NCBI GenBank assembly: GCA_964587195.1
Contig: CAZPKN010000003.1
Span: 1-61,277, forward strand
Reading direction: 5' to 3'
Length of the DNA: 61,277 nt
Origin: an uncultured Gammaproteobacteria bacterium
GTDB lineage: Bacteria; Patescibacteriota; Patescibacteriia; Patescibacteriales; UBA12465
The translations under genes were made by a program, and so were the position numbers. Each line of letters begins with the position of its first letter. The stretch's first letter is position 1. A model generated the notes under the pieces. That model did not search any database. It saw only the letters and a program-made list of their open reading frames with translations, and was not told the DNA's origin. Below, piece after piece: positions 2,355 to 59,906 of the stretch.

Positions 2355-2355
2355 T

Positions 2356-42578: not shown

Positions 42579-42582
42579 ATAA

Positions 42583-42858: not shown

Positions 42859-42862
42859 ATGT

Positions 42863-44804: not shown

Positions 44805-44858
44805 AAAATTATTTTAAGAAGGGAGTTTTCGCCCCGCCGGTTAAAGCGGGGCGATAAA

Positions 44859-45107
44859 CTATTTGATCGTGCCCCTGATTTTCTTTACGCCCCACATAAT
44901 ACCCTTGATAATCAAAGTTAAAGTGATGACGGCGCCGAACACTCCGAGGATATAAGGGATAAACGCATAAGCGTTATCCTTTAATAAATCGGTGGTGCTA
45001 GCTAAAGAATTAGTCAGGTCCGGATCGGCGGCCGCATGAGCGAAATTAGTACTTAAACCAAGTGCGCCTATGAAAGCCATAAATCCGAGTCCAATCTTCT
45101 TAAACAT
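44859..45107 (-). CDS. Major coat protein (pVIII-like)
   Basis: Signal peptide ending AHA, acidic N-terminus, one TM helix, basic tail KKIRGTIK; SD-like GGGGGTG 6 nt before ATG 45107. Confidence 0.85.
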   Translation of the reverse strand: MFKKIGLGFMAFIGALGLSTNFAHAAADPDLTNSLASTTDLLKDNAYAFIPYILGVFGAVITLTLIIKGIMWGVKKIRGTIK

Positions 45108-45130
45108 ATTTTTCACCCCCTTTCTAGTCT

Positions 45131-45232
45131 TTATTTATTTTTGTTAATAAAGAACGGAATAAGAATAAGACCGAGAAATCCAGCCCATAGGCACCATTTT
45201 AATAATTCATTTACTGCTTCAAATTCGGTCAT
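45131..45232 (-). CDS. 33-aa pIX/pVII-like minor coat protein (not in ORF track)
   Basis: MTEFEAVNELLKWCLWAGFLGLILIPFFINKNK*. Confidence 0.7.
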   Translation of the reverse strand: MTEFEAVNELLKWCLWAGFLGLILIPFFINKNK

Positions 45233-45236
45233 ATAA

Positions 45237-45335
45237 TTACAAACTATCTTTTATCTTTTTAAGCCCCCAAATTATCAAAAGGATGATAATTAAAGGCGTG
45301 TAGATCTGAACGAATTCAATGCCATTTATTTCCAT
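45237..45335 (-). CDS. 32-aa pVII/pIX-like minor coat protein (not in ORF track)
   Basis: MEINGIEFVQIYTPLIIILLIIWGLKKIKDSL*. Confidence 0.7.
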   Translation of the reverse strand: MEINGIEFVQIYTPLIIILLIIWGLKKIKDSL

Positions 45336-45493
45336 ATTTTTTTAGCTACATAAATTATGATAATTGCCCCTAAGGCTATTTTTACGAAGAAAAATAAGCC
45401 GGCAATTGGCAATACGAAAGTCGCGCTTAAATTAACAATATTGTCAGCGCTGTCTAAAACTTGGTAATGGAATAAAATTTCATTGAAATTCAT
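45326..45493 (-). CDS. 55-aa single-TM protein (not in ORF track)
   Basis: MNFNEILFHYQVLDSADNIVNLSATFVLPIAGLFFFVKIALGAIIIIYVAKKIWK*; overlaps the next start. Confidence 0.65.
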   Translation of the reverse strand: MNFNEILFHYQVLDSADNIVNLSATFVLPIAGLFFFVKIALGAIIIIYVAKKIWK

Positions 45494-45560
45494 ATAATAA
45501 TTAATTTAGAAATCGGAGCGGACTTACAGGATAAAAATATTTCCTTGCCGCCCCATATTT

Positions 45561-45857
45561 CTATTTCTTATCGTTTTCATTCTCAGACACGTAAATAGAA
45601 AGATAAGCTCTTTGCCTTACCCCATCGACATAGCTAAAAGGGAAGACATTAACCTCAAGCTCTACTTCTGAGCCGACTGCGCCAAAATCTCGGTCCAGTG
45701 GCACATTTACCTTTATTGGGTAAATACTGCCTAATGGGTCGATAAATAATGAGCGGACAACGCCGGGGACTCCGTCTTTACTGACGAAATCTTTTGTTTT
45801 ATCATCTTTGATTTTTCCTTTTAAAATAAACATAGTTTTATTGTTATTTTTATTCAT
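45561..45857 (-). CDS. pV-like ssDNA-binding protein
   Basis: 98-aa beta-rich protein from ATG 45857 (GGGGG upstream), first gene of the structural cassette; assignment mainly positional. Confidence 0.6.
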   Translation of the reverse strand: MNKNNNKTMFILKGKIKDDKTKDFVSKDGVPGVVRSLFIDPLGSIYPIKVNVPLDRDFGAVGSEVELEVNVFPFSYVDGVRQRAYLSIYVSENENDKK

Positions 45858-45951
45858 TGTTCTGCCCCCGACCTTTATCCGGCAGTTTACGCTCATATCA
45901 TAGATAAAGAGGGTTCTGAAAAGTTCCGGTACCATTTTTCAGAACAACAAA

Positions 45952-45977
45952 AAAAGACCTGTTTTACAGGTCTTTTT
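45952..45977. terminator. Bidirectional terminator, copy 1
   Basis: AAAAGACCTGT-TTT-ACAGGTCTTTT. Confidence 0.8.
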
Positions 45978-45997
45978 AGCGATATTTTTTCAGAACT

Positions 45998-46807
45998 TTA
46001 GAGGTATTTTTTGTTTAACTTAACTTTTCCTTTTCTTCCAGTATTGAAAATTAGGAAGTCTTTAATTTTTATAGCATCTTCAATTTTCTTATTAACTTCA
46101 AAGCAAATATTATGATATCTTTTCCAGCGCCTTCTGTTTTCCTTGTATTCATCAAAGTCATCAAACTCATCTTCGGCTATTTCTGAGTAAAAGAAATCAT
46201 CATCTAAATTATCTTTATTATCAATAAAGACATATTTTAGTAATTTATGGGCATTTCCAATTTTATCTTGCTTGCCAATAGACACTTTTTGCGCTTTTAT
46301 CCAGAGAATGCTTCTTTTTGGGTCAAAATAGGTTTTTTTATCATCCTCATCTTCGCTCAAAAAACTCTTTTGGTCTAATTGCTCAAAAATGTTGCTATTT
46401 ATTACCTTAAAAGACAGCTTAAGGGAGTCTTTAGAATAGGGTTTAGAGAAAAGACGGCATAAATCATCAAATTCTTGTTTATCAGCTATATTACAATCCT
46501 TAATCTTTTTCATCCGGCTATATATTATTTTAAGGTTTGAATAATATACCCAAAATTCATTAGTGTGAATAACCTCGCTTTTAACGTTAAGGAATTTATC
46601 CTCATTAAGCTCTTGGCCGGCTTCGCCCATTGCTTTGACGGTGTTATCAAAAATGCCTTGTAAAACCTCTTTAGTGACCGGGTCTTTATCGATGAGAGTA
46701 ATGTATTTATAGACGATAACAAAGCGCTGAAAAATGTTATTTTCTATACAAAAAAGCCTAGTTAATTCCAGCATTTTTTCTTTCACTGCTGAGCAATAGG
46801 CTTTCAT
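45998..46807 (-). CDS. Hypothetical protein with possible C-terminal winged helix
   Basis: 269 aa; the C-terminal YSEIAEDEF...INKK-like helix plus GKVKLNKKYL hairpin pattern suggests a wHTH (inference). Confidence 0.6.
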   Translation of the reverse strand: MKAYCSAVKEKMLELTRLFCIENNIFQRFVIVYKYITLIDKDPVTKEVLQGIFDNTVKAMGEAGQELNEDKFLNVKSEVIHTNEFWVYYSNLKIIYSRMKKIKDCNIADKQEFDDLCRLFSKPYSKDSLKLSFKVINSNIFEQLDQKSFLSEDEDDKKTYFDPKRSILWIKAQKVSIGKQDKIGNAHKLLKYVFIDNKDNLDDDFFYSEIAEDEFDDFDEYKENRRRWKRYHNICFEVNKKIEDAIKIKDFLIFNTGRKGKVKLNKKYL

Positions 46808-46982
46808 ATGATTTCTACTTTTAAAATATTCCCGCCTTTTGAGCAGGGAATATTTGCTATTCTATATAAATTTGTCAATAAGTCATGGTTTTAGGGAAAT
46901 TTTAGATTCATATTATTCTTATTATAAATTAAATTTAGAATCAAAACAAGTTGATAAATATTAGCCTATTTATGGACTTTTC

Positions 46983-47043
46983 AAATATTTACAAAATATT
47001 TACAAAATTAAAAATAATTGTTAAAGTAGAAGTAAAGTTTTAC
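46983..47043 (+). promoter_or_regulatory. Promoter/operator region of the XRE-glycosylation operon
   Basis: AAATATTTACA x2 (11-bp period), TTTACA-N17-TAAAGT with TGn, palindrome GTAAA-GT-TTTAC. Confidence 0.45.
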
Positions 47044-47064
47044 TAGAAAATAGTTAAACAAGAT

Positions 47065-47265
47065 ATGAAATCAAAAATCGGAGAGAATCTAAAAAAGTAT
47101 CGATTAGGTTGCGGTTTGTCACAGGAAGAATTAGCCTCTAAAGCTAATGTAACTTTTCATACTATTTCAAAAATAGAAACAGGTGCGACTAATGACCCAA
47201 GGGCCTTAACTCTTGAGAAGCTAGTTAAAGTTTTAGATATTAAAATTGATGATTTATTAAAATAA
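47065..47265 (+). CDS. XRE-family HTH repressor
   Basis: LKKYRLGCGLSQEELASKANVTFHTISKIETG pattern. Confidence 0.92.
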   Translation: MKSKIGENLKKYRLGCGLSQEELASKANVTFHTISKIETGATNDPRALTLEKLVKVLDIKIDDLLK

Positions 47266-47269
47266 AAAT

Positions 47270-48211
47270 ATGGATAATTTATATTTATCAGTTATTGTTC
47301 CTGTATATAATGAAGAGGGGGCAGCAGCTAATCTTTATCAGGAAATTTTAAATGTTTGCCAAAAAATTAATAAACCATTTGAAATTATTTTTGTTAACGA
47401 TGGTTCAACCGACAAAACTCTTGAAGTCTTAAAAACCCTATCACCGATTAAAATTGTTAATTTACGTGGCAATTTTGGACAAACAGCAGCCATGGATGCT
47501 GGAATTAAAGCCGCTTCCGGCTTCTATTTAGCCACTTTAGACGGTGACGGGCAAAATGATCCAGCTGACATTCCTAATCTAATAGCTGAACTGGAGAAAA
47601 ATGATTTAGATGTAGTTTCTGGTTGGAGAAAGAATAGAAAGGATACTTTTATGAAAAAGCTTTCTTCTAAATGTGCCGCTTATGTTAGAAAGCGCTTAAT
47701 TAACGATGGGATTCATGACTCAGGTTGTTCGCTTAAAGTTTATAAAAAAGAGTGTTTTAAGGGAGTAACGCTTTATGGCGAAATGCATCGTTTTATTCCG
47801 GCTGTTTTAAAAATTAAAGGCTTTAAAATTGGAGAGTTAGTAGTTAATCATCGTTCAAGGAAGACTGGTAGAACAAAATATAATTGGAAACGAGGAATAA
47901 AAGGAATTTTAGATATGTTTTCCGTTTGGTTCTGGAAAAAATATGCTAATCGCCCCCTACATTTATTTGGGGGATGGGGGGTTATATTGATCACGATTTC
48001 ATTTTTTTCTGGACTTTTAGCAATGTATAAAAAAATATTTTCAGGTCAAGATTTATCTGACACGGCTTTAACCGATTTATCAATGTTTGGGTTTTTTGTT
48101 GGCATAATGTTTTTTATTTTTGGTCTTTTAGCTGATATTCTTTCTAAAAACTATTATGCTACTCATAAAGAAGAGGCCTATAGTGTTAAAGAAGTAATTG
48201 ATAATAAGTAA
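47270..48211 (+). CDS. GT2 polyprenyl-phosphate glycosyltransferase (ArnC/DPM-like)
   Basis: VIVPVYNEE, VNDGSTD, LDGDGQNDP, GEMHRFIP motifs; two C-terminal TM helices. Confidence 0.92.
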   Translation: MDNLYLSVIVPVYNEEGAAANLYQEILNVCQKINKPFEIIFVNDGSTDKTLEVLKTLSPIKIVNLRGNFGQTAAMDAGIKAASGFYLATLDGDGQNDPADIPNLIAELEKNDLDVVSGWRKNRKDTFMKKLSSKCAAYVRKRLINDGIHDSGCSLKVYKKECFKGVTLYGEMHRFIPAVLKIKGFKIGELVVNHRSRKTGRTKYNWKRGIKGILDMFSVWFWKKYANRPLHLFGGWGVILITISFFSGLLAMYKKIFSGQDLSDTALTDLSMFGFFVGIMFFIFGLLADILSKNYYATHKEEAYSVKEVIDNK

Positions 48212-48212
48212 T

Positions 48213-49076
48213 ATGAAAAAGAATTTATTAATTGGTTTCATTGGTCAGGGATTCATTGGTAAAAACATGGCAGATGATTTTTCTGATCGTGGATATCAAG
48301 TTGTTCGCTACGATAAAAATCATAACTCCAGCAACAGAGATAAAATAAAAGAATGTGATTTTGTTTTTATAGCCGTACCGACTCCTTCAACCCCGGATGG
48401 TTTTGATGATAGTATTTTACAGGAAGTTCTGGCTTTAGTAGGAGAGGATAAAACTGCCATTATTAAATCAACGATTAAAATTGGCACTACGGAAAAATTA
48501 CAAAAATTATATCCTAACAAATATATTTTACATTCCCCAGAATTTTTGACAGAAAAAAACGCCGCTAATGATACTAAATTTCCCCCTCGAAATGTCATAG
48601 GTTTTACTGAAAAATCTAAAGATAAATCTCAGGATGTTTTAAATCTTTTACCACCAGCACAACATAATTTCATAGTTGAGAGTAAAGAGGCGGAATTAGT
48701 AAAATACATGGGCAATAATTTTTTATTTCTTAAGGTTATTTTTGCTAATTTAATTTATAGTCTAGCTGATAAAAAAGGTGTTGATTATCAAAAAGTTGCA
48801 GAAATTGTTGGCTTTGATCCAAGAATTGGACATAGTCATTTACAGATTAATCATCAAAGCGGTCACAGCAATAAAGCGGGAAGAGGAGCTGGTGGGCATT
48901 GTTTTATTAAAGATATGGCAGCTCTAGTAGAAATGTTTAAAGAAGATGATTTAAATAATAAAGCAGACCACTTGGCGGTCGAGGTTTTAGAAAAAGTGGT
49001 TGATTTTAATAAACAATTATTAATAGATAGCAATAAAGACTTAGATTTATTGCAAGGAGTATATGGAAATGAATAA
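48213..49076 (+). CDS. UDP-glucose/GDP-mannose dehydrogenase family protein, lacking the C-terminal domain
   Basis: GFIGQGFIG, IKSTI, HSPEFL, AELVKY and GAGGHCFIKD motifs; only ~287 aa. Confidence 0.85.
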   Translation: MKKNLLIGFIGQGFIGKNMADDFSDRGYQVVRYDKNHNSSNRDKIKECDFVFIAVPTPSTPDGFDDSILQEVLALVGEDKTAIIKSTIKIGTTEKLQKLYPNKYILHSPEFLTEKNAANDTKFPPRNVIGFTEKSKDKSQDVLNLLPPAQHNFIVESKEAELVKYMGNNFLFLKVIFANLIYSLADKKGVDYQKVAEIVGFDPRIGHSHLQINHQSGHSNKAGRGAGGHCFIKDMAALVEMFKEDDLNNKADHLAVEVLEKVVDFNKQLLIDSNKDLDLLQGVYGNE

Positions 49077-50037
49077 TAAAAAAACAATTTTAGTTACCGG
49101 TTCGGCTGGTTTTATCGGTTTTCACACGGCTAAAAGACTGTTGGAAGACGGCAATATTGTAATTGGTGCCGATAACTTCAACGACTACTATAATCCGAGC
49201 CTTAAGGAGGCTAGAAATGCTATTTTAGAGGGTTTTGAGGGCTATAAGCTATATCGGGGAGACCTTAGTGATGAGAACCTAGTAGAGCAGATTTTTACCG
49301 AAAATAAAATAGATCAAGTTTGCCATTTAGCCGCTCAAGCTGGTGTGCGCTATAGTTTAGAAAATCCTAGAGTTTATATTAAATCAAATATCAATGCTTT
49401 TCTTAATATCTTAGAAGCAGCTAGAAATTATAATATTAAAGATTTAGTCTATGCTTCTTCTAGTTCGGTTTATGGCAGTAATCAGAAAGTACCATTTTCA
49501 GTTAATGACTCAGTAGATAATCCAATTTCTTTATATGCAGCCACTAAAAAAGCCGATGAACTTATGGCTCATACGTACTCTCATTTATTTGATATAAATA
49601 CTACCGGTTTACGCTTTTTTACAGTTTTTGGTCCTTATGGTCGCCCTGATATGGCCCTTTTTTTATTTACCCACGCTATTGCAAATGAAGAAGAAATAAA
49701 AGTCTTTAATTTTGGTAAGATGAAACGAGACTTTACCTATATAGATGATATCGTTGATGGTGTATTATTAGCCCTAGAAAAAACTAATGGCTATCAAATA
49801 TTTAACTTAGGCAATAATAAACCAGTTGAGTTAGAATATTTTATAAGTTGTATAGAGAAAGAAATAGGGAAGAGTGCTAAGAAGAAATATATGGAACTAC
49901 AGCCAGGGGATGTTTTAGAAACATTCGCTGATATTGAACATACTAAAGAAGTATTAGGCTGGGAGCCAAAAACAAGCACCGAAGAAGCAATTAAAGCTTT
50001 TATTGGATGGTACAAAGAATACTATGGAGACAAATAA
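49063..50037 (+). CDS. NAD-dependent epimerase, UDP-glucuronate 4-epimerase-like
   Basis: TGSAGFIG, HLAAQAGVRYSLENP, YAATK and YGRPDMA motifs. Confidence 0.9.
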   Translation: MEMNNKKTILVTGSAGFIGFHTAKRLLEDGNIVIGADNFNDYYNPSLKEARNAILEGFEGYKLYRGDLSDENLVEQIFTENKIDQVCHLAAQAGVRYSLENPRVYIKSNINAFLNILEAARNYNIKDLVYASSSSVYGSNQKVPFSVNDSVDNPISLYAATKKADELMAHTYSHLFDINTTGLRFFTVFGPYGRPDMALFLFTHAIANEEEIKVFNFGKMKRDFTYIDDIVDGVLLALEKTNGYQIFNLGNNKPVELEYFISCIEKEIGKSAKKKYMELQPGDVLETFADIEHTKEVLGWEPKTSTEEAIKAFIGWYKEYYGDK

Positions 50038-51151
50038 GAAAAAAAGAATCTTAGTTTTAAATTACGAATTTCCGCCTTTGGGAGGAGGGGCAAGTCCGGT
50101 GAGCTACGAAATTGCAGAGCGTCTGTCAGAAACGGGTGATTTTGATATTGATGTGGTGACTATGGGCTATAAAGATTTACCAAAATATGAAGAAATAAAT
50201 AGTAATTTTAGAATACATAGAGTTAAATGTTTAAGAAATAAAAAAGAGATTTGTCATCCTTGGGAGCAGGCTAGTTATCTATTAAGTGGATATTTTAAAT
50301 GCAAACAATTATTAAAGAAAAGCAAATACGATATTTGTCATTGTCACTTTATTATTCCGACAGGAGTATTAGCAATAAAACTAAAAAATAAATTTGATTT
50401 ACCTTATATTATTACTAGTCATGGGAGCGATGTCTTGGGATATAATGCTAGATTTAAATTATTATATCCTTTTTTAGTAAAAACTTGGAAAAATATTTTA
50501 GATAATGCTAATAAAATAATATCTCCATCTAATTTTCTTAAGACAGAAATATTAAAAGTTTACCCACAATTTAATAATGAAAAAATAGAAGTGATTCCTA
50601 ACGGTTTTGATACTAGTAAATTTAAGCCACAAGAAAAGAAAAAATATATTTTTTCATCTGGCAGATTATTGGTTAACAAAGGTTTTCAATACTTAATTCA
50701 GGCAGTTTCTGATTTTAATATTGATTACGAGGTCCATATTGCTGGTGACGGACCAATGAGGGCAGAGCTACAAAAGTTAGCAGAAAAATCAAAGACAAAA
50801 ATAATTTTTCATGGCTGGCTTGATAATAACGGCCAAGAGTACAAAAATTTATTAGAGCAAGCCGCAATATACGTTTTAGCTTCAGAGAAAGAAAATGCTA
50901 GTATAGCTTTACTAGAAGCTATGAGTGCTGGTTGCACAGTAATCACAACAAATGTATCTGGATGCCCAGAAACAGTTGGAAATGCTGGATTATTAATAAA
51001 TCCTAGATATGCTAATGATTTAAAAATAAAATTGAATACCATTGTTAATGATGAAAATAAGTTAATTGAACTGCAGAAAAAAGCACAAGATAGAGTAAAA
51101 AATATTTACGACTGGAATATTGTTTTAAAAGAATTTATAAAAGTATTATGA
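50024..51151 (+). CDS. GT4 glycosyltransferase
   Basis: EFPPLGGGA, SHGSD, GDGP and ALLEAMSAG motifs. Confidence 0.9.
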   Translation: METNKKKRILVLNYEFPPLGGGASPVSYEIAERLSETGDFDIDVVTMGYKDLPKYEEINSNFRIHRVKCLRNKKEICHPWEQASYLLSGYFKCKQLLKKSKYDICHCHFIIPTGVLAIKLKNKFDLPYIITSHGSDVLGYNARFKLLYPFLVKTWKNILDNANKIISPSNFLKTEILKVYPQFNNEKIEVIPNGFDTSKFKPQEKKKYIFSSGRLLVNKGFQYLIQAVSDFNIDYEVHIAGDGPMRAELQKLAEKSKTKIIFHGWLDNNGQEYKNLLEQAAIYVLASEKENASIALLEAMSAGCTVITTNVSGCPETVGNAGLLINPRYANDLKIKLNTIVNDENKLIELQKKAQDRVKNIYDWNIVLKEFIKVL

Positions 51152-52245
51152 GCAAAGAAATAAAAATTTTACATATAATAGATTCCCTTGGACTTGGTGG
51201 CGCCCAAACTATTGTTAAAGGTATTTTTGAATATCAATTAAATAACCAAAATATATTTTTATTTGCATTAAGAAATAGAAATATTTTAATAGAAGTTAAG
51301 CACACTAATGTTCAGATCTTTAATTCATCTAAAAAATATTCTTTTAGACCTCTTTTTGCGTTAAAAGATCTAATTAAACGTGAAGAAATTACAATTTTAC
51401 ATTGCCATCTTTTTAAATCTCAGATTTTTGGCTTTCTTTTAAAAAAAATATGGTTTAAGAATGTGAAATTAATATTTCATGAACATGGTGAGATATTCCA
51501 AGGTTATATCACGTATAATTTATTTATGAGAGATGTCAAAAGTACTATAAATAAAATTATTGCCGTATCTAATGCCACAAAAGAAAAATTAATAGCTAAG
51601 GCCGGCATAGAAGAAAATAAGATAACCGTTTTATCAAATTTTGTTGATTTAAATAAATTTAATAGGAAAAATATTACTTGGAATATGGAAGGGGAAAGAG
51701 AAAAATTAGGTATTAAAAAGGGTGAATATGTAATAGGTTTTGTTGGCAGACTTGCAAAAGTTAAGGGTTGTGAGTATTTGTTGAAAGCGCTACCTTATTT
51801 AAACTTTTCCTATAAGGTTTTAATTGCTGGTGATGGCCCAGAAAGAAAAAAGCTTGAAAAATTGGCAGTAGAATTAAAAATTACTGAAAGAATTATATTT
51901 TTAGGTTATAGAAGTGATACGGTCTTTATTTATTCCTTGTTAGATGTTTTAATTATGCCCTCTTTGAGCGAGTCTTTCGGTTTGTCTGTTATTGAAGCAC
52001 AGTCTATGGGCACTCCAGTTATATCGTCTAATATTCCTGCATTAAATGAAATTATTATTAATAACGAAAACGGCTTGATGTTTGAGGTTAAAAAATCTCT
52101 AGATCTTTCTCTGAAGATAGAGCTGATGTATAAGGATGAAAAAGCTAGAAATAGGTTTACAAAAAATGGATTAGAAAGTGTCAAAAAGTATGATTTAGAA
52201 AATTATATTAATAATTTGAATAAAATTTATGAAGATATTAAATAA
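51148..52245 (+). CDS. GT4 glycosyltransferase
   Basis: LGLGGAQ, VGRL, GYRSD and ESFGLSVIEA motifs. Confidence 0.92.
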   Translation: MSKEIKILHIIDSLGLGGAQTIVKGIFEYQLNNQNIFLFALRNRNILIEVKHTNVQIFNSSKKYSFRPLFALKDLIKREEITILHCHLFKSQIFGFLLKKIWFKNVKLIFHEHGEIFQGYITYNLFMRDVKSTINKIIAVSNATKEKLIAKAGIEENKITVLSNFVDLNKFNRKNITWNMEGEREKLGIKKGEYVIGFVGRLAKVKGCEYLLKALPYLNFSYKVLIAGDGPERKKLEKLAVELKITERIIFLGYRSDTVFIYSLLDVLIMPSLSESFGLSVIEAQSMGTPVISSNIPALNEIIINNENGLMFEVKKSLDLSLKIELMYKDEKARNRFTKNGLESVKKYDLENYINNLNKIYEDIK

Positions 52246-53050
52246 TATTAAACATAATCAGATACAACACGACAAATTAGCTTCAACTTATAATATTAAA
52301 CATTCCGAAATTTATAATATATACGAACAAAGTAGGTTAAAAAAAAGTATAGATTTTTGTATCAAATCTGTAAATTCTAATTCTTCAGTAAAGGTTTTAG
52401 ATTTTGGCGCTGGAACTGGAAATCTTTCCCATATATTTCTGGAAAAAGGTTGCACTGTTACTGCCTGTGATGTATCGCAAAAGTCTCTAAATATTCTAAA
52501 AGATAAATTGCCTTCTAATAATCTTGATACTGTTTTATACAACGGTCTTAAATTGCCGTTTGAGGATAATACTTTTGATATTACTGCAACGTATTCAGTT
52601 TTACATCATATACCTAATTATATAAGTGCCGTAAAGGAAATGATTAGAGTCACAAAGAAAGGTGGATTGATTTGTATTGATCATGAAGCAAATGAAAATA
52701 AATGGAATCCATCAATTGAATTAATAGAGTATAATAATTTAACTAAACAAACTATATTTGAACATATTACAAAATTATTAATTGCCAAGGAATTATTAAC
52801 CTTTGATTTTATTAAAACTGTTTTTATCAAATTTTTTATAAATAAAAAATATCAAAGAGAAGGTGATATTCATGTTTGGAGGGATGATCATGTAGAATGG
52901 AAAAAGGTTAATGAGCTTATTAAAAAAGAAAAATGTGAGATTTTTAAGGAAGAAGATTATTTAATGTATAAACCCAAGGGAGGATTAGAAATATATGAAA
53001 AATATAGTAAGTTAACAAATGATACTAAATTAATTGTAATAAAGAAATGA
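52229..53050 (+). CDS. Class I SAM-dependent methyltransferase
   Basis: VLDFGAGTG, LPFEDNTFD and SVLHH motifs. Confidence 0.9.
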   Translation: MKILNNIKHNQIQHDKLASTYNIKHSEIYNIYEQSRLKKSIDFCIKSVNSNSSVKVLDFGAGTGNLSHIFLEKGCTVTACDVSQKSLNILKDKLPSNNLDTVLYNGLKLPFEDNTFDITATYSVLHHIPNYISAVKEMIRVTKKGGLICIDHEANENKWNPSIELIEYNNLTKQTIFEHITKLLIAKELLTFDFIKTVFIKFFINKKYQREGDIHVWRDDHVEWKKVNELIKKEKCEIFKEEDYLMYKPKGGLEIYEKYSKLTNDTKLIVIKK

Positions 53051-53988
53051 AAAAAATAATTATTACTTTAACTAAAACAATAATAGCAATATCGCTATTA
53101 GGATATTTGTTTTCACTAGTTGATTGGGATACTTTTTTAAGTGCAATTAAAAATGCTAATATTTTTTATATTTTAGTTTCTGCCTTTATGGCATATTTTG
53201 GTATTTATATTAGTATATTAAAATGGAGTATTTTTTTAAAAAATTATGGAATTGTTATTTCTAAATTAAAACTTTATTCTATTTATTCAATAAGCGCTTT
53301 TTTTAATAATTTTTTACCAACTACTGTAGGAGGTGATTTTTATAGAATTATTAGTTTAAATAAACAAATTCCAGTCAAGAAGAAAGAAATTATTTCATCT
53401 ATTATTTTAGAAAGAGGATTTGGTTTTTTGTCTTTATTCCCAATTAACTTTTTATTAGCACCTTTTTATTATAAATTTTTATTAAATAAGAGCTTTCTAT
53501 TAATTCAGGTGCTTATTGTAATAGGTTTTATTTCAATAATTTTTTTAATTTTTAAATATAATTTACTAATTAGATTAAAAAATAAACTAATAAAAAAAGA
53601 ATTTATTATATTAAACAAATTTCATAGCTTAGTTATTTCTATTTCAAATATAAAGAGTAAAAAAACGTTGATATACGGATTCTTGAACTCAATTGTTTTT
53701 TGTTTGACTATTGCTACTGCGAGATATATTTTATTTTTAGCATTCAATATTCAAGTAGATTTTTTTTATATATTGCTAGTTAGTTCTATAGCGCAAATTA
53801 TAGGAATACTTCCAATATCTCTTAACTCAATAGGTGTAAATGAAGGATTGAGCGTTTTTTTATTCAGTCTCGTTGGCGTTCCTATAGAAATATCTTTAGT
53901 TGTCGCATTAGTTGGAAGAGTATCTCTAATAGCGACTAGTTCTCTGGGGGGATTATTTTATTTTTTTGATAATAAAATTAAATTTTAA
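53047..53988 (+). CDS. Flippase-like membrane protein (LPG synthase TM / UPF0104 family)
   Basis: FFNNFLPTTVGGD and LPISLNSIGVNE motifs; multi-TM. Confidence 0.85.
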   Translation: MKKIIITLTKTIIAISLLGYLFSLVDWDTFLSAIKNANIFYILVSAFMAYFGIYISILKWSIFLKNYGIVISKLKLYSIYSISAFFNNFLPTTVGGDFYRIISLNKQIPVKKKEIISSIILERGFGFLSLFPINFLLAPFYYKFLLNKSFLLIQVLIVIGFISIIFLIFKYNLLIRLKNKLIKKEFIILNKFHSLVISISNIKSKKTLIYGFLNSIVFCLTIATARYILFLAFNIQVDFFYILLVSSIAQIIGILPISLNSIGVNEGLSVFLFSLVGVPIEISLVVALVGRVSLIATSSLGGLFYFFDNKIKF

Positions 53989-53999
53989 AAAATATTTGC

Positions 54000-56180
54000 T
54001 TAATTTAACCTTATTAACGTTAAAATAGGGTAAATATTTAATTTAGATTTTTGGTCATTAAATAAATTTTTCTTTGGATAAAATTGTTGAACTATTTCTC
54101 CATTTTCAATTATACTTCTTAGAACAGGATTAGAGTCTTTATGTTTATAGGAGTCATAGGTCAAAATAGCATATACATTTTTTTCTTTTAATAAAATATT
54201 GTCAAGATGATCATCATTCATTATGACAGGAGATCCGGTATAAATATCCCAATCTTGATTCTCTTCTATTATATATTTATTGTTATTCCATGCTATATAG
54301 TTCTTAAAAAAATCAATCTGATCTTCAGTGTAATTGTATTTTGGGTATTGAAAAGATCCATTAGAACTAATAATCTCTGTGTCCCTTAGATGATATTTAG
54401 CCTTATAAATTCTAGAAAAATTAAATAGTTTGCCAACCAAAGGATATTCTATAATAACCGTGCTTTCTTTAGGTATATATGCTACTAAATTATTCCACGG
54501 AACCGATGCTTCTATGGTCCACCCAAGATAGCCAGTTTTCATTAAATTTAAGTTATATAAATTGCTAATAATAAATACTATGAATATAAAATAAAATATT
54601 ATTTTAGATACTTGAAGTCTAACGAAATAAAAGCCATAAGCCATAATCGCTACCAACATAAAACTAATGGGAAATAGATATCTTACGTCAAGTATGTTTT
54701 TACCAAAAACGTAACCCAATAAAATTATTAAACCGACAATCCACGCCAATAATATTTTTAAAAATTTATCTTTTTTAAATAAATTAATAATTGTTATTAG
54801 TATAATAATTATTAATCCAATATTTTTTTGATAATAAAAAATGTTTATAATATTTTGCAGATGATTACTTAATTTAAATGTGATATTTCTTATAATAAAA
54901 TTATAAATTGAATTATCATAAAATATTATGTAAACTAGAAATAGAGATAGTATTAACAACAATGAAATAGTAATATAAAAAACATTTTTTCGGTCTCTAA
55001 TTAGTTTATTGAATACTAGCATTGAATAAAGAAGTATTAACGAGAAGAGTCCAATATTGTGTCCAATAAAGATATTTGAGAAAGTTATTAATAGAAACAG
55101 TAAAGAGCTGATTAAAAAATCCTTCAAATTATTAGATTCGTATATTTTTTTACCTATTAAAATGCCCGTTATTAGGATGATTGCAGAAATAACATATTCT
55201 CTCGCTATCATGGAATATAATATAAAATACCAATTAAGCCCAAATAAAAAAACCCCTAACAATGCTATTTTTTTTAGTTTAAATATATTTTTTATCAATA
55301 TATATATTAAAAAGGATAGTAATATTTTTAGTACTACATTAAAAAATCTTAATTGATAAAAAATATCATCAAAAATTCTATAAAAAAAAGACTCTATCAA
55401 TGAATATACTATATTTCGATTATATGCTATTCCCGTACTTGTTTCGCCATAAAATTTCTGGTGATCTATAATATTTGAAACAGATAAATTCGTGTAGGCC
55501 TCATCTATATGGAATGGTACTTTATTTATAAAATATAGAGTTAAAATTGAAGACATTATTATAATAATGAGTAACAAAAAACTATAAATCACGCCTTCCT
55601 TGTAAAAAAAACATACCATTTTTTTTATAATAGGAATCTTATTTATCCTTGGAAACTTATCGGCAAATTCAGTTTTTCTTTTATCCTCAGCTATTTGTTC
55701 AGTTATTTGTTCTCGGTCTATCTCTTTTTCCACCCTCTCTCTATTATGCCAAAAAGTTAAGCCACCACTTAAAATCGCTAGTACTGTTATAATAACTTGA
55801 TATTTATTTATCCAAGCTAAATCAATAAACTTTTCTAAATAACTAAATTGCCCCAGCGCTATTATCAGCAAAAGAAAAAGAAAAAGATAGGAAATAATAT
55901 CCCACCTTTTTTCAACAATGAAATTTAAAACATTAATTAATATCTTTTTTGTCTGACCGTGAAATGGCCATTTGATATTTAGAATAAAACCTTTTATTTT
56001 TATAATTATGTCCCTCTCAAAGTTAACAAAATAAAATATCGCTAGAAATATAGCTAGGGAATTAGTAATTACCGTAAAAGCATCTTGTATATTTTGGCCA
56101 ATATTAAATAGACAAAAAATAGCTACTATTAATAATAATATTGATATTCCGTATTGTTTTATAACTCTTATCATAATCAT
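54000..56180 (-). CDS. GT-C fold glycosyltransferase (ArnT/PMT-like) with extra N-terminal TM region
   Basis: FHIDEAY, FGLNWYFILYSMIAREY and RYLFP motifs; start coupled to the upstream stop (TAATG). Confidence 0.8.
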   Translation of the reverse strand: MIMIRVIKQYGISILLLIVAIFCLFNIGQNIQDAFTVITNSLAIFLAIFYFVNFERDIIIKIKGFILNIKWPFHGQTKKILINVLNFIVEKRWDIISYLFLFLLLIIALGQFSYLEKFIDLAWINKYQVIITVLAILSGGLTFWHNRERVEKEIDREQITEQIAEDKRKTEFADKFPRINKIPIIKKMVCFFYKEGVIYSFLLLIIIIMSSILTLYFINKVPFHIDEAYTNLSVSNIIDHQKFYGETSTGIAYNRNIVYSLIESFFYRIFDDIFYQLRFFNVVLKILLSFLIYILIKNIFKLKKIALLGVFLFGLNWYFILYSMIAREYVISAIILITGILIGKKIYESNNLKDFLISSLLFLLITFSNIFIGHNIGLFSLILLYSMLVFNKLIRDRKNVFYITISLLLILSLFLVYIIFYDNSIYNFIIRNITFKLSNHLQNIINIFYYQKNIGLIIIILITIINLFKKDKFLKILLAWIVGLIILLGYVFGKNILDVRYLFPISFMLVAIMAYGFYFVRLQVSKIIFYFIFIVFIISNLYNLNLMKTGYLGWTIEASVPWNNLVAYIPKESTVIIEYPLVGKLFNFSRIYKAKYHLRDTEIISSNGSFQYPKYNYTEDQIDFFKNYIAWNNNKYIIEENQDWDIYTGSPVIMNDDHLDNILLKEKNVYAILTYDSYKHKDSNPVLRSIIENGEIVQQFYPKKNLFNDQKSKLNIYPILTLIRLN

Positions 56181-57664
56181 TAAAAAGCAAATACCCAAAT
56201 AGGATCTTGTTGCCCGGTTTTATTATAAAAAATTAATTTTTGTTGATTAATTAAATCATTAATCTCTCTATCTAACCTAATTCCAGTCATATTGTCAACT
56301 ATAATATAGCCAGTCTTTGTTTCTGTTAACTCTTTTAACTGCTCCGCAGTTTTAATAGTAATAGCATTATTATAATATTCTCTTTCGGCCAACTTGCTTT
56401 TATTTAATTTGCGTCCATCTAAGCCAATTGCTAGCCAATAATCACTTCTGCCTAAATAGACTTTATCAAGTTGTGTAAAAGCAGAAACAATTACCTTATC
56501 TTCGCTCCAACCCTGATCTGCAATCGCTTGATAGGCACTTTTGAAATCTGGTTGAGGAGTATGAGGCTCTAAGTAATAATAAGTAATCGGTTTTAAAACA
56601 AAAGTATTGGTCTGTAAATAATTAGAAGCAGTAATTACTAAGATTAAAATACCTAAACCAAGTAGCCAGGAATATTTAAATTTTTTGCTTACTATATTAA
56701 TTACATAAGCTGTTAGGATAAATAGGATGGGTAGGATGAAAAATAAATAACGAAAATGTAAAGTATCAGCGCTAAAAGTTATTATTAAATAGGGAAGTAA
56801 ATAAGCAACAATTAGACCAATTTTGGTTTTTATGTTTTTTTCTTTTAAAACTATAATAACTGTCCCCGCTAAAGCCATAACTACAATTAGGGGTAAATAA
56901 TCAATTAGAAAATTCTGATAATTATGACCAATAAAAAAATTATTAGTGCTAGCTTTTCTAAAAAAGTCTAAAAATAATTTAACTAATAGAGAGATTATTC
57001 CTAAGCCGCTTAAAGCAATTACTATTAATTTGTTTTTGTCTTGAATTATTTTTCGCAACTCTTCTTTTTTAGTATTAAATAAATTAATGAGTAGTATAAG
57101 GGCATAAATACCAATTAATAAATAACCAAAATAATGGCTTAAAATAGCCGCTAAGGTAACTAGTACCAATAAGACTAGTTTTTTATAGGAAAATTTATTG
57201 AGCAGGGAATTAAAAAGGTAGAGAGCGAGAAGAAAGAAGAACTGTAGTTGGATATACATTCTCGCCTGCCTGCTCCAGGCTATTTCCCAATAAGATAAAG
57301 TGGTTAAAATAGCGGCGAAGAAGCCTACTTGTTTATTAAAATATTGACGCCCTAAGAAATAAATCATTAATATAACCCCGATTCCAAAAATGACTGCCGG
57401 TAATCTTGTGGCTATTGGATTAAAACCGCCTAGCTTAACCGCCCCAGTAATTAAATAATTATTAAGAAGATAATGAGGTCCATAAATTTTGTCTGAGTCA
57501 AGTATGGGGTAGCCTTTTTCTAGAGTGCTCAACACTGCATTTAAGGTATAGCCTTCGTCTATCCAGTAAGACTGTTGGTCAATTTTATAGAATCGCAAAA
57601 ACAAACCATAAATAATAATTATAGAAAAAAAAGAAAATATTAAAATTTTATGATATTTTTGCAT
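56180..57664 (-). CDS. GT-C fold glycosyltransferase (ArnT/PMT-like)
   Basis: SYWIDEGYT, RLPAVIFG, SRQARMY and RYLFF motifs; ~11 TM segments. Confidence 0.85.
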   Translation of the reverse strand: MQKYHKILIFSFFSIIIIYGLFLRFYKIDQQSYWIDEGYTLNAVLSTLEKGYPILDSDKIYGPHYLLNNYLITGAVKLGGFNPIATRLPAVIFGIGVILMIYFLGRQYFNKQVGFFAAILTTLSYWEIAWSRQARMYIQLQFFFLLALYLFNSLLNKFSYKKLVLLVLVTLAAILSHYFGYLLIGIYALILLINLFNTKKEELRKIIQDKNKLIVIALSGLGIISLLVKLFLDFFRKASTNNFFIGHNYQNFLIDYLPLIVVMALAGTVIIVLKEKNIKTKIGLIVAYLLPYLIITFSADTLHFRYLFFILPILFILTAYVINIVSKKFKYSWLLGLGILILVITASNYLQTNTFVLKPITYYYLEPHTPQPDFKSAYQAIADQGWSEDKVIVSAFTQLDKVYLGRSDYWLAIGLDGRKLNKSKLAEREYYNNAITIKTAEQLKELTETKTGYIIVDNMTGIRLDREINDLINQQKLIFYNKTGQQDPIWVFAF

Positions 57665-57871: not shown

Positions 57872-59467
57872 ATGAAAAAGTTTAAAAACTACTTTTCCAA
57901 AATCTTCAAAACTAAAGCGGTATTAGCAATGTTGATTATTGGTCTCGCCATCTCTCCGACGGTTTTTGCTCAGTTTGCTCGTCAAACTGGAGGTCCCGAT
58001 TGGGGCTATGGTTACGGTTACGGTTACGGCTATGGCTACGGCTTTGACGGTGGCACTATTGCTGGTTATCGTACAACGGGAGCTGCATCTTCAACTTATG
58101 CTTATGGCTACGGCTATGGTTATAAAGCTGATGGTGTGACATATGATGCAAGTAATGGGTTTGAAGTTACGCCAGCTACTATGAGTAGTTTGGTCCAAGC
58201 AGGTATTATGATTCCTAGCGGATCAAACCCTTCTAATACTAGTGCAATTACTTTCGCGCAACAAGTCGCTCTTGCACCAGTAACTGGAGTTTCTGTTGTT
58301 ATTCCGCAAGGGGTTGTTATGACATCCAATTCTGGAAATTTTGATATGGCTGATTTAGCAGCTGGGGCAGCGAGTTTAACCGGCTTATCTACTGATGTTG
58401 ATCTTGCTGGTTCGCTTTCGTTTGGTGTGCCTAGTGTAGGGTTAACACTTAATCCAGCTATTCAAATTTCTATCGCAGTTGATTCTGCTTTAGAAGGTAA
58501 AACATTAAAAATTTACAGAAAGGATGCCGGCGGTTCATGGGTTGAAAGTCCTTCCGGAACAGATGCAACTTGTACTGTAACTAGTGGTGTTTGTACTTTT
58601 AGTACTACTCATCTATCATCTTTTGGTGCCGGTGATGTTTATACTTGGAATTATGGATCATATGGGTCTTGTAGCGTTTCTTGTGGTGGAGGAACACAAA
58701 CCAGAACTGCTACTTGTAAAAATTCTAGCGCTGAAACCGTAGCTAACTCTTTCTGTTCTGGAACAGCAGTAACATCTCAATCTTGCAATACTCAAGCTTG
58801 TAGCTCTGGCGGAGGAGGAGGCGCAATTGTTAATAATTGTAGCTCTGTCGTTTATGCAGATTGGGGTTCTTGTGTTAATGGTTTTCAATTTAGATCAGTT
58901 TTAAGTCAAACTCCAGCTGGTTGTTCATTAACTGCTCAACAGCAAATAGATTCTTCTAGAGCCTGTGTCTTAGGCGAAGAGCCTATCGTTGTTACCCCTC
59001 CAGTTGTTACTCCAGGTAGTTCTGAAGCTAGAGCTGATGTAAAACAAGTGATGAATAATGAAAGATCATTAGTTTCTAAGATTAATACCGCTCTAACTAA
59101 TCGCTTAGCTGGTCGTATTTTGCTTCAGGTTGAAGAAAAAGGACAAGCTTGGTATATTGAGCCAGTTAGTAAGCAAAAACATTTCATGGGACGTCCAGCT
59201 GACGCCTTTGATATGATGCGTCGCTTTGGTCTTGGTATTAGTGAAGCTAATTTTTCTAAGTTCGAAAAATCAGGCGTTCCAGCTCGTTTTGCTGGTCGCA
59301 TATTCTTAAGAGTTAAAAGCAAAGGTGAAGCCTACTATATTAATCCAGTTGATATGAAAATGCATTACTTAGGTCGTCCAGCTGATGCCTTTAACTTAAT
59401 GAGAAGTAAAGCTTTGGGAATTTCTAACGCAAATATCAGACAAATCCCAGTGGGTGAAGTTAAATAA
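57872..59467 (+). CDS. Secreted surface protein with (GY)n tracts, a TSP1 repeat and a duplicated C-terminal domain
   Basis: Signal peptide; WGYGYGYGYGYGYG; WNYGSYGSCSVSCGGGTQTRTATC; two copies of (RL/RF)AGRI(L/F)L.V..KG.A(W/Y)YI.PV. Confidence 0.85.
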   Translation: MKKFKNYFSKIFKTKAVLAMLIIGLAISPTVFAQFARQTGGPDWGYGYGYGYGYGYGFDGGTIAGYRTTGAASSTYAYGYGYGYKADGVTYDASNGFEVTPATMSSLVQAGIMIPSGSNPSNTSAITFAQQVALAPVTGVSVVIPQGVVMTSNSGNFDMADLAAGAASLTGLSTDVDLAGSLSFGVPSVGLTLNPAIQISIAVDSALEGKTLKIYRKDAGGSWVESPSGTDATCTVTSGVCTFSTTHLSSFGAGDVYTWNYGSYGSCSVSCGGGTQTRTATCKNSSAETVANSFCSGTAVTSQSCNTQACSSGGGGGAIVNNCSSVVYADWGSCVNGFQFRSVLSQTPAGCSLTAQQQIDSSRACVLGEEPIVVTPPVVTPGSSEARADVKQVMNNERSLVSKINTALTNRLAGRILLQVEEKGQAWYIEPVSKQKHFMGRPADAFDMMRRFGLGISEANFSKFEKSGVPARFAGRIFLRVKSKGEAYYINPVDMKMHYLGRPADAFNLMRSKALGISNANIRQIPVGEVK

Positions 59468-59491: not shown

Positions 59492-59518
59492 AAAAGACCT
59501 GTGTTTACAGGTCTTTTT
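59492..59518. terminator. Bidirectional terminator, copy 2
   Basis: AAAAGACCTGT-GTTT-ACAGGTCTTTT, differing from 45952-45976 by one loop base. Confidence 0.8.
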
Positions 59519-59579: not shown

Positions 59580-59628
59580 TTAACTATTATTAGCCACACT
59601 AGTTCGAACTTTGTCCACGACCCCGAGC
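59580..59628 (-). other. Inferred attR P-arm encoding the alternative recombinase C-terminus
   Basis: Minus strand reads LGVVDKVRTSVANNS* in frame from the shared GAGC; contains GTTCGAA. Confidence 0.6.
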
Positions 59629-59667
59629 TAATAAAAAAATGGCTAATTTTAGCCATTTTTTTATTAG
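59628..59667. terminator. Long A/T-rich hairpin, probable original tRNA terminator (B' arm)
   Basis: CTAATAAAAAAATGGCTA-ATTT-TAGCCATTTTTTTATTAG, perfect 18-bp stem. Confidence 0.65.
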
Positions 59668-59670: not shown

Positions 59671-59823
59671 GTGGGTAAGAATGAGAACCCTCGGGTTCGC
59701 ACTGCCGAGGATAGCGAGGAATCGCCAGCCTGCCTGCCGGTAGGCGGGCTTGCTGGCAGTTCCGAGCGGCGCAGGCAGAATAGGGCGGCTTTGCCGCCCT
59801 ATAATCCCACCCCGGGAGCCAAC
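59671..59823 (+). repeat. tRNA-Asn 3' fragment with a T loop interrupted by GC-rich hairpins
   Basis: GTGGGT / GGGTTCG ... AATCCCACCCCGGGAGCCAAC; includes the 20-nt palindromic unit at 59729-59748. Confidence 0.7.
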
Positions 59824-59879
59824 AAATTTTTTGTGCTGTAGACCGACATATTTGTAATAATATTAGCCAAAAAACAAAG

Positions 59880-59906
59880 AAACTCAGTTTACGCTGAGTT
59901 TTTTTG
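59880..59906. terminator. Intrinsic terminator
   Basis: AAACTCAG / CTGAGTTT stem followed by a T run. Confidence 0.7.

Follow-up and report, generated by a model that had tools for sequence, protein, structure and literature searches.

The 61,277-nucleotide stretch analyzed here (contig CAZPKN010000003.1, positions 1 to 61,277, corresponding to ENA contig ERZ724080 NODE_477; referred to below as the window) carries at 47065-57664 a block of glycan-synthesis genes beside a filamentous prophage. The question raised by this locus is whether the glycan genes travel with the phage or form a separate module that has come to lie next to it. A preliminary description of this DNA regarded them as a complete uronic-acid glycosylation module transcribed behind the phage repressor. 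Our confidence is evenly balanced over a different reading, in which the block is a strain-variable cell-surface glycan module, accreted as cargo of a 21.8-kb tRNA-Asn island and separate from the inovirus-like prophage beside it. The block is a pair of converging operons with ten genes, eight in the forward and two in the reverse arm:

47065-47265, forward strand: XRE-family helix-turn-helix (HTH) protein, 66 aa; stop codon at 47263-47265
47270-48211, forward strand: GT2 polyprenyl-phosphate glycosyltransferase of the GtrB/ArnC/DPMS type (Pfam, NCBIfam and PDB matches, transmembrane scan)
48213-49076, forward strand: short UDP-glucose/GDP-mannose dehydrogenase-family (Ugd-like) protein, 287 aa; called start 1 nt past GT2
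49063-50037, forward strand: nucleotide-sugar 4-epimerase-like enzyme of the short-chain dehydrogenase/reductase (SDR) type (Epimerase, 9.4e-58); 14-nt overlap with the Ugd-like gene
50003/50024-51151, forward strand: first GT4 (Pfam/NCBIfam)
51148-52245, forward strand: second GT4 (Pfam/NCBIfam); 4-nt overlap with the first
52229-53050, forward strand: class I S-adenosylmethionine-dependent methyltransferase (Pfam/NCBIfam)
53047-53988, forward strand: LPG_synthase_TM/TIGR00374 "flippase-like" polytopic membrane protein (Pfam, NCBIfam, transmembrane scan)
54000-56180/56198, reverse strand: large GT-C, 726/732 aa, with an N-terminal extension (assigned via homologs and profile)
56180-57664, reverse strand: conserved GT-C, 494 aa, PMT_2 (PF13231, 2.2e-12)

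The XRE stop codon is separated from the GT2 ATG (47270) by 4 nt, the six genes downstream of GT2 are spaced by 1-nt gaps or 4-17-nt overlaps, and the two reverse-strand GT-C genes, as called, have 1 nt in common. As the 4-nt gap leaves no room for a terminator, XRE and GT2 are likely to be co-transcribed. The GC content amounts to 0.31-0.32 between 46 and 51 kb and to 0.22-0.28 between 51 and 57 kb, compared with 0.34-0.37 in the prophage and 0.39-0.42 in the ribosomal and core part of the window. A promoter scan performed no better than chance in the AT-rich cluster DNA (78 sites against 83 expected). Gene calls, family matches and GC content (0.22-0.32 against ~0.40 in the core) thus agree with the preliminary description as regards gene content, tight coupling and the AT-rich character of the block; the 4-nt XRE-GT2 gap that it noted is the same in six strains.

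The GT2 protein aligns over its full length with the PDB entries for ArnC (9bhc, 1.3e-36), GtrB/sll0501 (5ekp, ~5e-25) and DPMS (5mlz), and a transmembrane scan located two C-terminal helices, as in the ArnC/GtrB/DPMS group. The NCBIfam models for ArnC and PgfS (NF047588) were also matched over the full length, with 150 bits against a cut-off of 529 and 124 bits against a cut-off of 500, respectively. Judged by these alignments, GT2 would make a polyprenyl-phosphate-linked monosaccharide; the NCBIfam scores do not settle which sugar.

The nucleotide sugar is likely to be supplied by the next two genes. The Ugd-like protein keeps the NAD-binding Rossmann and central domains and the catalytic Cys, its motif GGHCFIKD aligning with GGSCFPKD of 4a7p, and is without the C-terminal UDP-binding domain. 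It covers just positions 69-284 of the 413-position TIGR03026 model (148 bits, cut-off 189.8), and PDB Ugd matches to it end near residue 290 of 390-490. An exhaustive search gave 174 representative clusters of this short family at E<=1e-30, mostly of 255-300 aa and aligned end to end, with occasional fusions to GT4, ATP-grasp and SDR epimerase domains. By this comparison the protein is a member of a genuine, widespread short family and not the product of a truncated gene. The best PDB match of the epimerase was 5u4q (380 bits), possibly a UDP-glucuronic acid (UDP-GlcA) 4-epimerase to judge from the next-best matches; a literature search on this entry gave no useful paper. The next matches, at 130-165 bits, were GalE, the UDP-glucuronate 4-epimerases 6zl6 and MoeE5, and UDP-N-acetylhexosamine 4-epimerases (WbgU/WbpP). 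These matches make it safe to call the enzyme a putative 4-epimerase, with UDP-galacturonic acid as a plausible product. The uronic-acid chemistry of the preliminary description has therefore to be restricted: its Ugd belongs to the expected dehydrogenase family and has the catalytic Cys, but at 287 aa, with the UDP-binding domain absent, it is not a three-domain Ugd, and the gene is missing from four related loci (L089, L173, L091 and L137), so that the chemistry is not fixed.

Of the two GT-C proteins the 494-aa one matches PMT_2 (PF13231) directly. The 732-aa protein has no Pfam match of its own; its homologs carry PF13231 and are named GT39, and a profile search with the family matched Pmt1, STT3, PIG-M, TMEM260 and, marginally, ArnT (5ezm, E 0.016). 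It is through homologs and this profile search solely that we assign it as a putative GT-C. An acidic motif in the first loop is an expected feature of the GT-C fold, and an IDE(G/A)Y motif was found directly after a transmembrane helix in both proteins (WIDEGY in the 494-aa and HIDEAY in the 732-aa GT-C). None of the 10 cluster proteins matched PF04138 (GtrA family) or had a domain of the formyltransferase, aminotransferase or deformylase kind, and PADLOC returned only generic matches, to the methyltransferase (mad2 and type I methyltransferase models) and XRE. A GtrA_DPMS_TM family gene (171 aa, 33092-33607, forward strand) belongs to the core genome, where its neighbours are dnaG and a gene for a D-Ala-D-Ala carboxypeptidase; its product could be a flippase partner for lipid-linked sugars produced elsewhere.

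The polyprenyl-phosphate-sugar route of the preliminary description is therefore upheld, with a GtrB/ArnC/DPMS-type GT2, a flippase-like protein, two coupled GT-C genes (PF13231 in one, family profile and homologs in the other, loop motifs in both) and a nucleotide-sugar arm. Its word "complete" is justified for the three-component GT2, flippase and GT-C route and does not extend to a priming phosphoglycosyltransferase, which is absent from the cluster. From the families we propose the following pathway. The short dehydrogenase-like protein and the 4-epimerase would supply a nucleotide sugar, perhaps a uronic acid, that is not constant across strains; GT2 would put one sugar on polyprenyl phosphate at the inner face of the membrane; the flippase-like protein would carry the lipid-linked sugar to the outer face; and the two PMT_2-type GT-C enzymes with their DE loop motif would transfer it outside the cell to a surface acceptor. 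The GT4 enzymes and the methyltransferase would assemble or modify the portion of the glycan in which the strains differ.

The acceptor is most likely to be a surface protein, with pilins and the product of the gene next to the GT-C pair as candidates:

57872-59467, forward strand: secreted thrombospondin type-1 (TSP1) domain protein, 531 aa (TSP1_ADAMTS, 3.6e-10); divergent from the GT-C pair

This protein contains (YG)n repeats, a thrombospondin type-1 repeat (CSVSCGGG...) and two C-terminal repeats of ~50 aa, and its orthologs lie beside the GT-C pair in L089, L090 and L171. Eukaryotic TSP1 repeats are substrates of GT-C C-mannosyltransferases, which is why the protein is considered as a candidate acceptor. 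A protein acceptor is favoured because the GT-C profile is nearest to protein O-mannosyltransferases, because a secreted protein is co-conserved, and because the Pgf system is likewise composed and has its substrates encoded adjacent (PMC12041528).

The strongest alternative leaves the genomic status of the block as proposed and concerns its product, which would be a membrane-anchored lipoglycan or teichoic-acid-like polymer: the GT4 enzymes would build a glycolipid which, once flipped, would be lengthened on the outside by the GT-C enzymes with polyprenyl-phosphate-sugar as donor, following the logic of mycobacterial phosphatidylinositol mannoside/lipomannan/lipoarabinomannan synthesis or lipoteichoic-acid glycosylation. 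Both GT4 proteins score against glycolipid or anchor synthases (MGlcDAG synthase 1.5e-23, GlcN-PG synthase 4.6e-20, also IagA/BgsA and TuaC), the flippase-like protein is of the MprF lipid-flippase family, and the absence of a priming phosphoglycosyltransferase and the presence of a Wzx-type flippase in L089, which suggests a polymer, agree with it as well. All the NCBIfam scores, however, are far under their cut-offs, the PMT_2/GT39 profile is closest to protein O-mannosyltransferases, and a secreted protein gene is co-conserved by the GT-C pair, as are the adhesin substrates of Pgf (PMC12041528). We regard such a polymer as a credible product, if a less probable one than glycosylated protein.

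Whichever the acceptor, the glycan is predicted to differ between strains. Six species-level versions of the locus were compared (the window, L089, L090, L171, L172 and L173), and an intact XRE-GT2 pair with the 4-nt gap is present in all of them; in a seventh locus, L091, an XRE pseudogene precedes an intact GT2 and an intact epimerase. Between the conserved XRE-GT2 start and the large GT-C the following genes were found:

Window and L171: short Ugd, epimerase, GT4, GT4, methyltransferase, flippase-like
L090 and L172: short Ugd, epimerase, GT4, GT2, flippase-like
L173: epimerase, GT4, GT4, flippase-like, methyltransferase; without short Ugd
L089: epimerase, 475-aa protein, GT4, GT4, GT2, Wzx-type flippase; without short Ugd

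The variable middle, 50003-53050 in the window, is thus swapped for other GT4, GT2, Wzx-like or methyltransferase sets in L089, L090, L172 and L173. Between strains XRE-GT2 is 94-97% identical, the 494-aa GT-C 91-94% and the TSP1 gene 91-98%. The large GT-C aligns over just 20-55% of its length, its C-terminal half being variable. Pairwise identities are mosaic along the locus, which indicates recombination. In this comparison the pattern of variation is that of an O-antigen or capsule locus: conserved flanks (90-97% identical), an exchangeable middle and a co-varying outer transferase. The swapped middle together with the variable large GT-C therefore predicts a different glycan in each strain, as expected for a structure that is recognised by phages or by host cells. 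A role in blocking phage adsorption or in altering attachment to the host may be proposed from this variability, from the defence-island setting described below and from the precedent of pilin glycosylation (bioRxiv 10.1101/150227).

To the left of the island, the first 37.6 kb of the window are ordinary core genome with ribosomal proteins and elongation factors, judged from open reading frame (ORF) sizes, and also encode aspartyl- and asparaginyl/lysyl-type tRNA synthetases, ScpA/B, DnaG and RpoD. Since this RpoD shares 82% identity with the one from a Candidatus Falkowbacteria metagenome-assembled genome, the host is, by this marker, a bacterium of the candidate phyla radiation (CPR)/Patescibacteria. 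CPR bacteria, this host among them, are not known to carry lipopolysaccharide (LPS) or its lipid A. The island itself begins at a tRNA gene and is bounded by the following features:

37978-38052, forward strand: tRNA-Asn(GTT) (ARAGORN; Rfam tRNA, 72.8 bits)
38034-38054 (left) and 59803-59823 (right): 21-nt direct repeat of the tRNA-Asn 3' end, AATCCCACCCCGGGAGCCAAC; two exact copies, 0 expected
59693-59823, forward strand: displaced tRNA-Asn T-arm remnant, reading GGGTTCG, a ~103-nt GC-rich insert and then AATCCCACCCCGGGAGCCAAC
59598-59631, forward strand: tRNA-Gln-3'-like remnant (TAGTTCGAACTTTGTCCACGACCCCGAGCTAA), the right edge of the cluster and TSP1 module in four strains; compared with the tRNA-Gln of L091

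The 21.8 kb within the tRNA-Asn repeats comprise the prophage, the glycan cluster, the TSP1 gene and the tRNA-Gln-like remnant, and over half of this unit, 12.9 kb, is non-phage DNA. The right copy of the repeat was spotted by reading the sequence and is not among the top 20 repeat families; searches for the displaced tRNA half with a 22-mer (<=3 mismatches) and a 34-mer (<=9 substitutions) gave no match, the copy being only 21 nt long and interrupted. Terminator hairpins at 45951-45977 and 59492-59517 were considered as attachment sites and rejected, a gapped pattern search being without a match.

The tRNA-proximal 8.9 kb of the island are the prophage, all of whose genes are on the minus strand:

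38011-39690, reverse strand: large serine recombinase, the integrase (Resolvase, Recombinase and Zn_ribbon_recom; PHROG 95 integrase, 4.6e-76)
40033-46933, reverse strand: inovirus-like prophage body (Pfam REP_ORF2-G2P and Zot, PHROGs, syntenic IMG/VR relatives L005/L177, L006-L008 and L175)
40033-40821, reverse strand: rolling-circle replication (RCR) Rep of the G2P type (Pfam REP_ORF2-G2P)
41727-42578, reverse strand: Zot/pI morphogenesis ATPase (Pfam Zot)
42863-44650, reverse strand: pIII-like protein, 595 aa
44859-45116, reverse strand: coat-like protein, 85 aa (weak assignment, PHROG 1109, 4.6e-5)
45998-46807, reverse strand: p269, 269 aa, with a 127-nt upstream region

The body also holds p91 and p124. 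With a Zot/pI ATPase, an RCR Rep and small coat-like proteins, the prophage is by its gene content inovirus-like (Tubulavirales), and a prophage does adjoin the cluster, as the preliminary description had it, both lying inside one tRNA-Asn-bounded island. Inoviruses with serine recombinases are known, including in CPR bacteria (Roux et al. 2019, PMC6813254). The end of the integrase ORF reads in reverse into the 3' half of the tRNA (38011-38052; ...LPGWDSNPRPIG*), the stop codon being supplied by the anticodon loop. This read-through is common to L005, L008 and L010; the tRNA is Asn in L005 and L175 and Trp in L008, and the L010 element is more distant. In related hosts, namely in L005/L177 (12722-12963, reverse strand) and also at the end of L175, a group I intron (RF00028, 92.4 bits, E 2e-24) interrupts the anticodon loop of the tRNA-Asn beside this phage family, unlike the tRNA-Asn of the window, which is intron-free. 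Just 5' of the p269 start a hairpin is present (46831-46847, TTCCCGCC...GGCAGGGAA-like) that L005 and L089 also have, with changes in the bases of loop and stem; it may serve the phage in regulation or packaging.

The relation of the cluster to this prophage was examined at their junction. The closest full phage relative, L005/L177, has the same gene order and a DNA identity of 73-78%, and the homology of L005 to the window stops at 46934. Homology of L091, whose GT2 is 87% identical, begins on the cluster side at 46933. As the two breakpoints coincide within one base, 46933/46934 is a true module junction. Beyond it, L005 has (866-2853, reverse strand) a 76-aa ORF, then, after 12 nt, the gene of a 581-aa HATPase_c_3 protein and next that of a 287-aa protein; these genes, without a PADLOC match, may be another cargo module. 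In L007 and L175 a LexA-like gene is found where the window has XRE, and XRE was not found in the phage relatives L005, L007, L008, L175, L176 and L178. The IMG/VR relatives of the phage are without the glycan cluster, and a scan of viral contigs with GT2 gave no close relative; an exact-match search for the phage right end in viral contigs gave zero matches.

The cluster, on the other hand, is retained where the phage has decayed: L089 keeps 43 codons of p269, followed by an unrelated gene, and in L091 an intact tRNA-Gln is followed by ~270 nt of phage scars (remnants of the integrase 3' end and the p269 start) and then by the XRE-side sequence. The preliminary description had pointed to the cluster as a fixed core locus in phage-free relatives as an observation that would speak against conversion. 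One half of this is found, since L089 and L091 keep the cluster with phage scars only, yet as island cargo and not in the core. Around GT2 at 80 loci of greater distance no XRE and no phage genes were found, the XRE remnant of L091 aside. A homolog search with an 861-aa neighbour protein of L089 returned zero matches.

A number of observations weigh against a cluster separate from the phage. In every locus of the clade the cluster adjoins this phage family or the scars left by it, and so it does in L091, which lies at another tRNA (tRNA-Gln). There is no copy of the tRNA repeat at the phage/cluster junction 46934, and the phage integrase is the only integrase between the repeats. By the usual att criterion (PMC6813254), which asks for direct repeats of >=10 bp located in a tRNA or adjoining an integrase, the whole 21.8 kb would be classed as one prophage. 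Neither an empty site, in relatives or in the same population, nor a circular junction was recovered. Relatives located through RpoD gave no empty site, L009 ending at tRNA-Asn and L010 having a serine integrase after it, and look-ups via p157, the GIY-YIG ORF described below and p269 gave neither an empty site nor a phage-only circle, the GIY-YIG product being without a record. As to the product, transcript, sugar and acceptor are predictions from the gene families; the GT2 and epimerase scores lie far under the NCBIfam equivalog cut-offs and do not settle which sugar is used, and the cluster has no priming phosphoglycosyltransferase that would point to an acceptor for the GT4 enzymes.

In the mobile form of the preliminary description, 38055-59802 would be a single inovirus-like phage or an integrative element built on one, whose serine integrase moves the glycan operon as conversion cargo that is expressed in the lysogen, alters the surface and blocks superinfection. 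The perfect 21-nt tRNA-Asn repeat brackets phage and cluster with no internal copy, and a second bracket may be seen in the tRNA-Gln remnant on the right and the tRNA-Gln with phage scars of L091 on the left. All contigs with p269 have XRE adjacent, the phage genes are intact in strains that have diverged by 6-10%, the cargo lies at the prophage end like gtrABC in Shigella phages, and the other genes of L005 at the same position are consistent with a cargo slot. Against this, 21.8 kb far exceeds the 9.06 kb between lexA and the integrase in the related prophage contig L175 and also typical inovirus sizes. No IMG/VR relative carries the cluster, none of the 80 distant GT2 loci has phage genes nearby, and the cluster outlasts phage decay in L089 and L091. 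The GC content is stepped, with 0.35 in the phage, 0.22-0.32 in the cluster and a core-like ~0.40 in the TSP1 gene, and past the tRNA, att-like remnants alternate with defence genes in a mosaic, so that accretion of separate elements accounts for the brackets as well. We therefore consider a single element rather unlikely; that a filamentous CPR element with a tRNA-targeting serine integrase carries a ~12-kb strain-variable glycan operon, driven by a restriction-modification (RM) type controller, as conversion cargo is to the same extent doubtful.

Homology with three related strains stops exactly past the tRNA-Gln-like remnant. Right of the island an Avs4 defence gene starts (60022-61277, forward strand) and runs off the window end after 418+ aa, with the P-loop GGAGVGKT and a PADLOC match at 8.4e-160 to the N-terminus of the anti-phage protein Avs4. 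The 150 nt past the right repeat (59824-59975) are ~80% identical to the DNA after tRNA-Gln in L193/L195. In L193 (9710-17728; also L195), an island of another type in a related CPR genome, ftsX, tRNA-Gln(TTG), XRE-hsdR-hsdM-hsdS, DUF6602 and a serine recombinase 37% identical to that of the window were found. In L089 (1-6600) the tRNA-Gln-like remnant is followed by HTH_17, N6_N4 methyltransferase, ResIII/DEAD restriction enzyme and KAP NTPase genes, a defence cargo that differs from that of the window at the same boundary. From these gene contents the neighbourhood is a tRNA-linked mosaic of serine-recombinase elements and defence cargo. Copies of AATATTCCCGGG at 37680-37691 and 37973-37984, of which the right one extends into the first bases of tRNA-Asn, bracket an 80-aa GIY-YIG ORF (37745-37987) that is preceded by a GC-rich palindromic stretch; the whole resembles a small insertion with target duplication. 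The GC-rich insert that splits the T-arm (~103 nt, 59700-59802, CTGCC/GGCAGG-type repeats) is like the GC-rich stretch beside this ORF (37692-37740), has no Rfam match and may be a small mobile or structured element. An Rfam scan of 37.5-61.3 kb detected tRNA alone.

On the cluster side of the junction lies XRE with its upstream region:

46955-47265, forward strand: controller cassette, a promoter/operator region and the 66-aa XRE gene (HTH_3, 1.7e-14)
46985-47008: tandem ATATTTACAAAAT, two copies, upstream of XRE
47031-47044: palindrome AGTAAAGTTTTACT, upstream of XRE; invariant in six aligned loci
46933/46934: module junction between phage backbone and cargo, 130 nt upstream of XRE

A search with XRE yielded homologs at 71-92% identity, and those at 71-88% head type I RM operons in other CPR contigs (L190, L193 and L196), with no phage genes nearby; three homolog loci were looked up and in all three XRE is the first gene of such an operon, 1-7 nt before hsdM or hsdR. 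In DNA alignments of the window with the RM loci the XRE ORF and ~70-110 nt upstream of it, including the palindrome, are conserved. The similarity stops at the XRE stop codon and the next gene is GT2 (window, L091) or an hsd gene (elsewhere); in the window and the six related loci the genes after XRE are glycosyltransferases and not RM genes. The 131 nt 5' of XRE (46934-47064) show 100% identity among five strains with 4-14% divergence in the flanking DNA, and PADLOC matched XRE to its Control_protein and HTH_VI models. The upstream repeat motifs do not recur in the phage-side promoter. Since XRE homologs head RM operons, the phage backbone ends before XRE, and XRE scores below the cut-off of the RstR model (33.9 bits, cut-off 80), we read it as a portable controller and not as a phage repressor. 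It would be a C-protein-like regulator of whichever operon follows, with a putative operator upstream. In the cluster the 66-aa protein would be the module's own controller, of the RM C-protein kind, on a portable promoter/operator cassette; it would autoregulate, most likely via the conserved palindrome, and head one transcript with the seven downstream genes.

The phage repressor of the preliminary description is thus not supported: that XRE is a prophage immunity repressor of the RstR/CI type, divergent from a p269 early operon and with the glycan genes riding on its transcript, would suit its divergence from p269 across a 257-nt intergenic region, the DNA-binding or small gene held there by related phages (LexA-like in L007 and L175, the 76-aa ORF in L005), its decay to a pseudogene in L091 together with the phage and its weak RstR-family match, but is very improbable given that this match is below the cut-off, that XRE and its upstream region lie beyond the break of backbone homology at 46934, that the same cassette heads non-phage type I RM operons, that its repeats are absent from the phage-side promoter and that L089 keeps an intact XRE though the phage body is gone.

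In its pattern of variation the block behaves as O-antigen loci do, here in a host that lacks LPS. It is linked to a controller cassette that heads RM operons elsewhere, and at its tRNA hot spot it has a filamentous prophage on one side and an Avs4 gene on the other. This suggests that CPR bacteria exchange surface glycosylation as a module of defence or recognition. These bacteria live on other cells, and their surface glycans and the variation of these are almost unstudied; experiments could start from the putative XRE operator, the donor of GT2, both GT-C enzymes and the TSP1-domain protein as a candidate substrate. Should it be true that the phage moves the operon, it would exceed by far every conversion module known from filamentous phages and take their lysogenic conversion to a new scale, and it would be the first glycan switch carried by a phage in an episymbiont that lacks LPS.

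Compared with known systems, the cluster has the composition of gtrABC, CsbB/GtcA/YfhO and streptococcal GtrB/PgtC2, namely a GtrB-type GT2, a flipping membrane protein and an external GT-C. It differs from the gtrABC type in having no GtrA-family (PF04138) gene, its flippase candidate being of the MprF/TIGR00374 type; in its GT-C enzymes, which are PMT_2 and not Gtr(type)/YfhO and number two; in the added GT4, methyltransferase and sugar-nucleotide genes; and in a host without LPS. The gtrABC genes are located at the end of a tRNA-integrated prophage; the cluster lies within the tRNA-Asn repeats but outside the conserved phage backbone. With the arn and rhizobial Rgt systems it shares ArnC as the top-scoring named GT2 family and a GT-C (494 aa) of the same Pfam family as ArnT. 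However, ArnA, ArnB and ArnD are missing, the ArnC score is 150 against 529, the ArnT match is marginal (E 0.016) and the host has no lipid A. In the TfpW/TfpO system of Pseudomonas aeruginosa a GT-C-type enzyme glycosylates type IV pilin, a phage receptor, from a polyprenyl-linked sugar as a strain-specific defence against phages (bioRxiv 10.1101/150227); unlike there, no pilin gene lies in or beside the cluster.

The O-glycosylation operon of Streptococcus mutans consists of PgfS, PgfE, PgfM1 and PgfM2 and has its surface-protein substrates encoded adjacent (PMC12041528, PMC5856776). The cluster resembles it in combining a GT-A/GT2 synthase, a 4-epimerase and two GT-C proteins with a secreted or surface protein gene next door. 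It differs in that its GT2 scores 124 bits against the PgfS cut-off of 500 and that its GT-C enzymes are PMT_2/GT39 and PgfM1/PgfM2 of the YfhO type; Pgf is core genome, whereas the cluster is island cargo with a hypervariable middle. The prophage is like the inovirus prophages described before (PMC6813254) in its Zot/pI ATPase, RCR Rep, small coat-like proteins, serine recombinase and tRNA att repeat, but the repeat-bounded unit is 21.8 kb, over half of it non-phage cargo that is absent from the closest phage relatives. Lastly, XRE resembles the C proteins of RM systems in being a small HTH protein whose gene opens a mobile operon, is closely coupled to the gene after it and has a conserved palindrome upstream; in the window its cassette heads a glycan operon and not nuclease and methylase genes, and the RM partners in its relatives are of type I. 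Taken from the gene content, what appears to be new is a GT-C three-component glycan locus under an RM-type controller cassette, which a CPR bacterium carries next to an inovirus as the variable cargo of an island.

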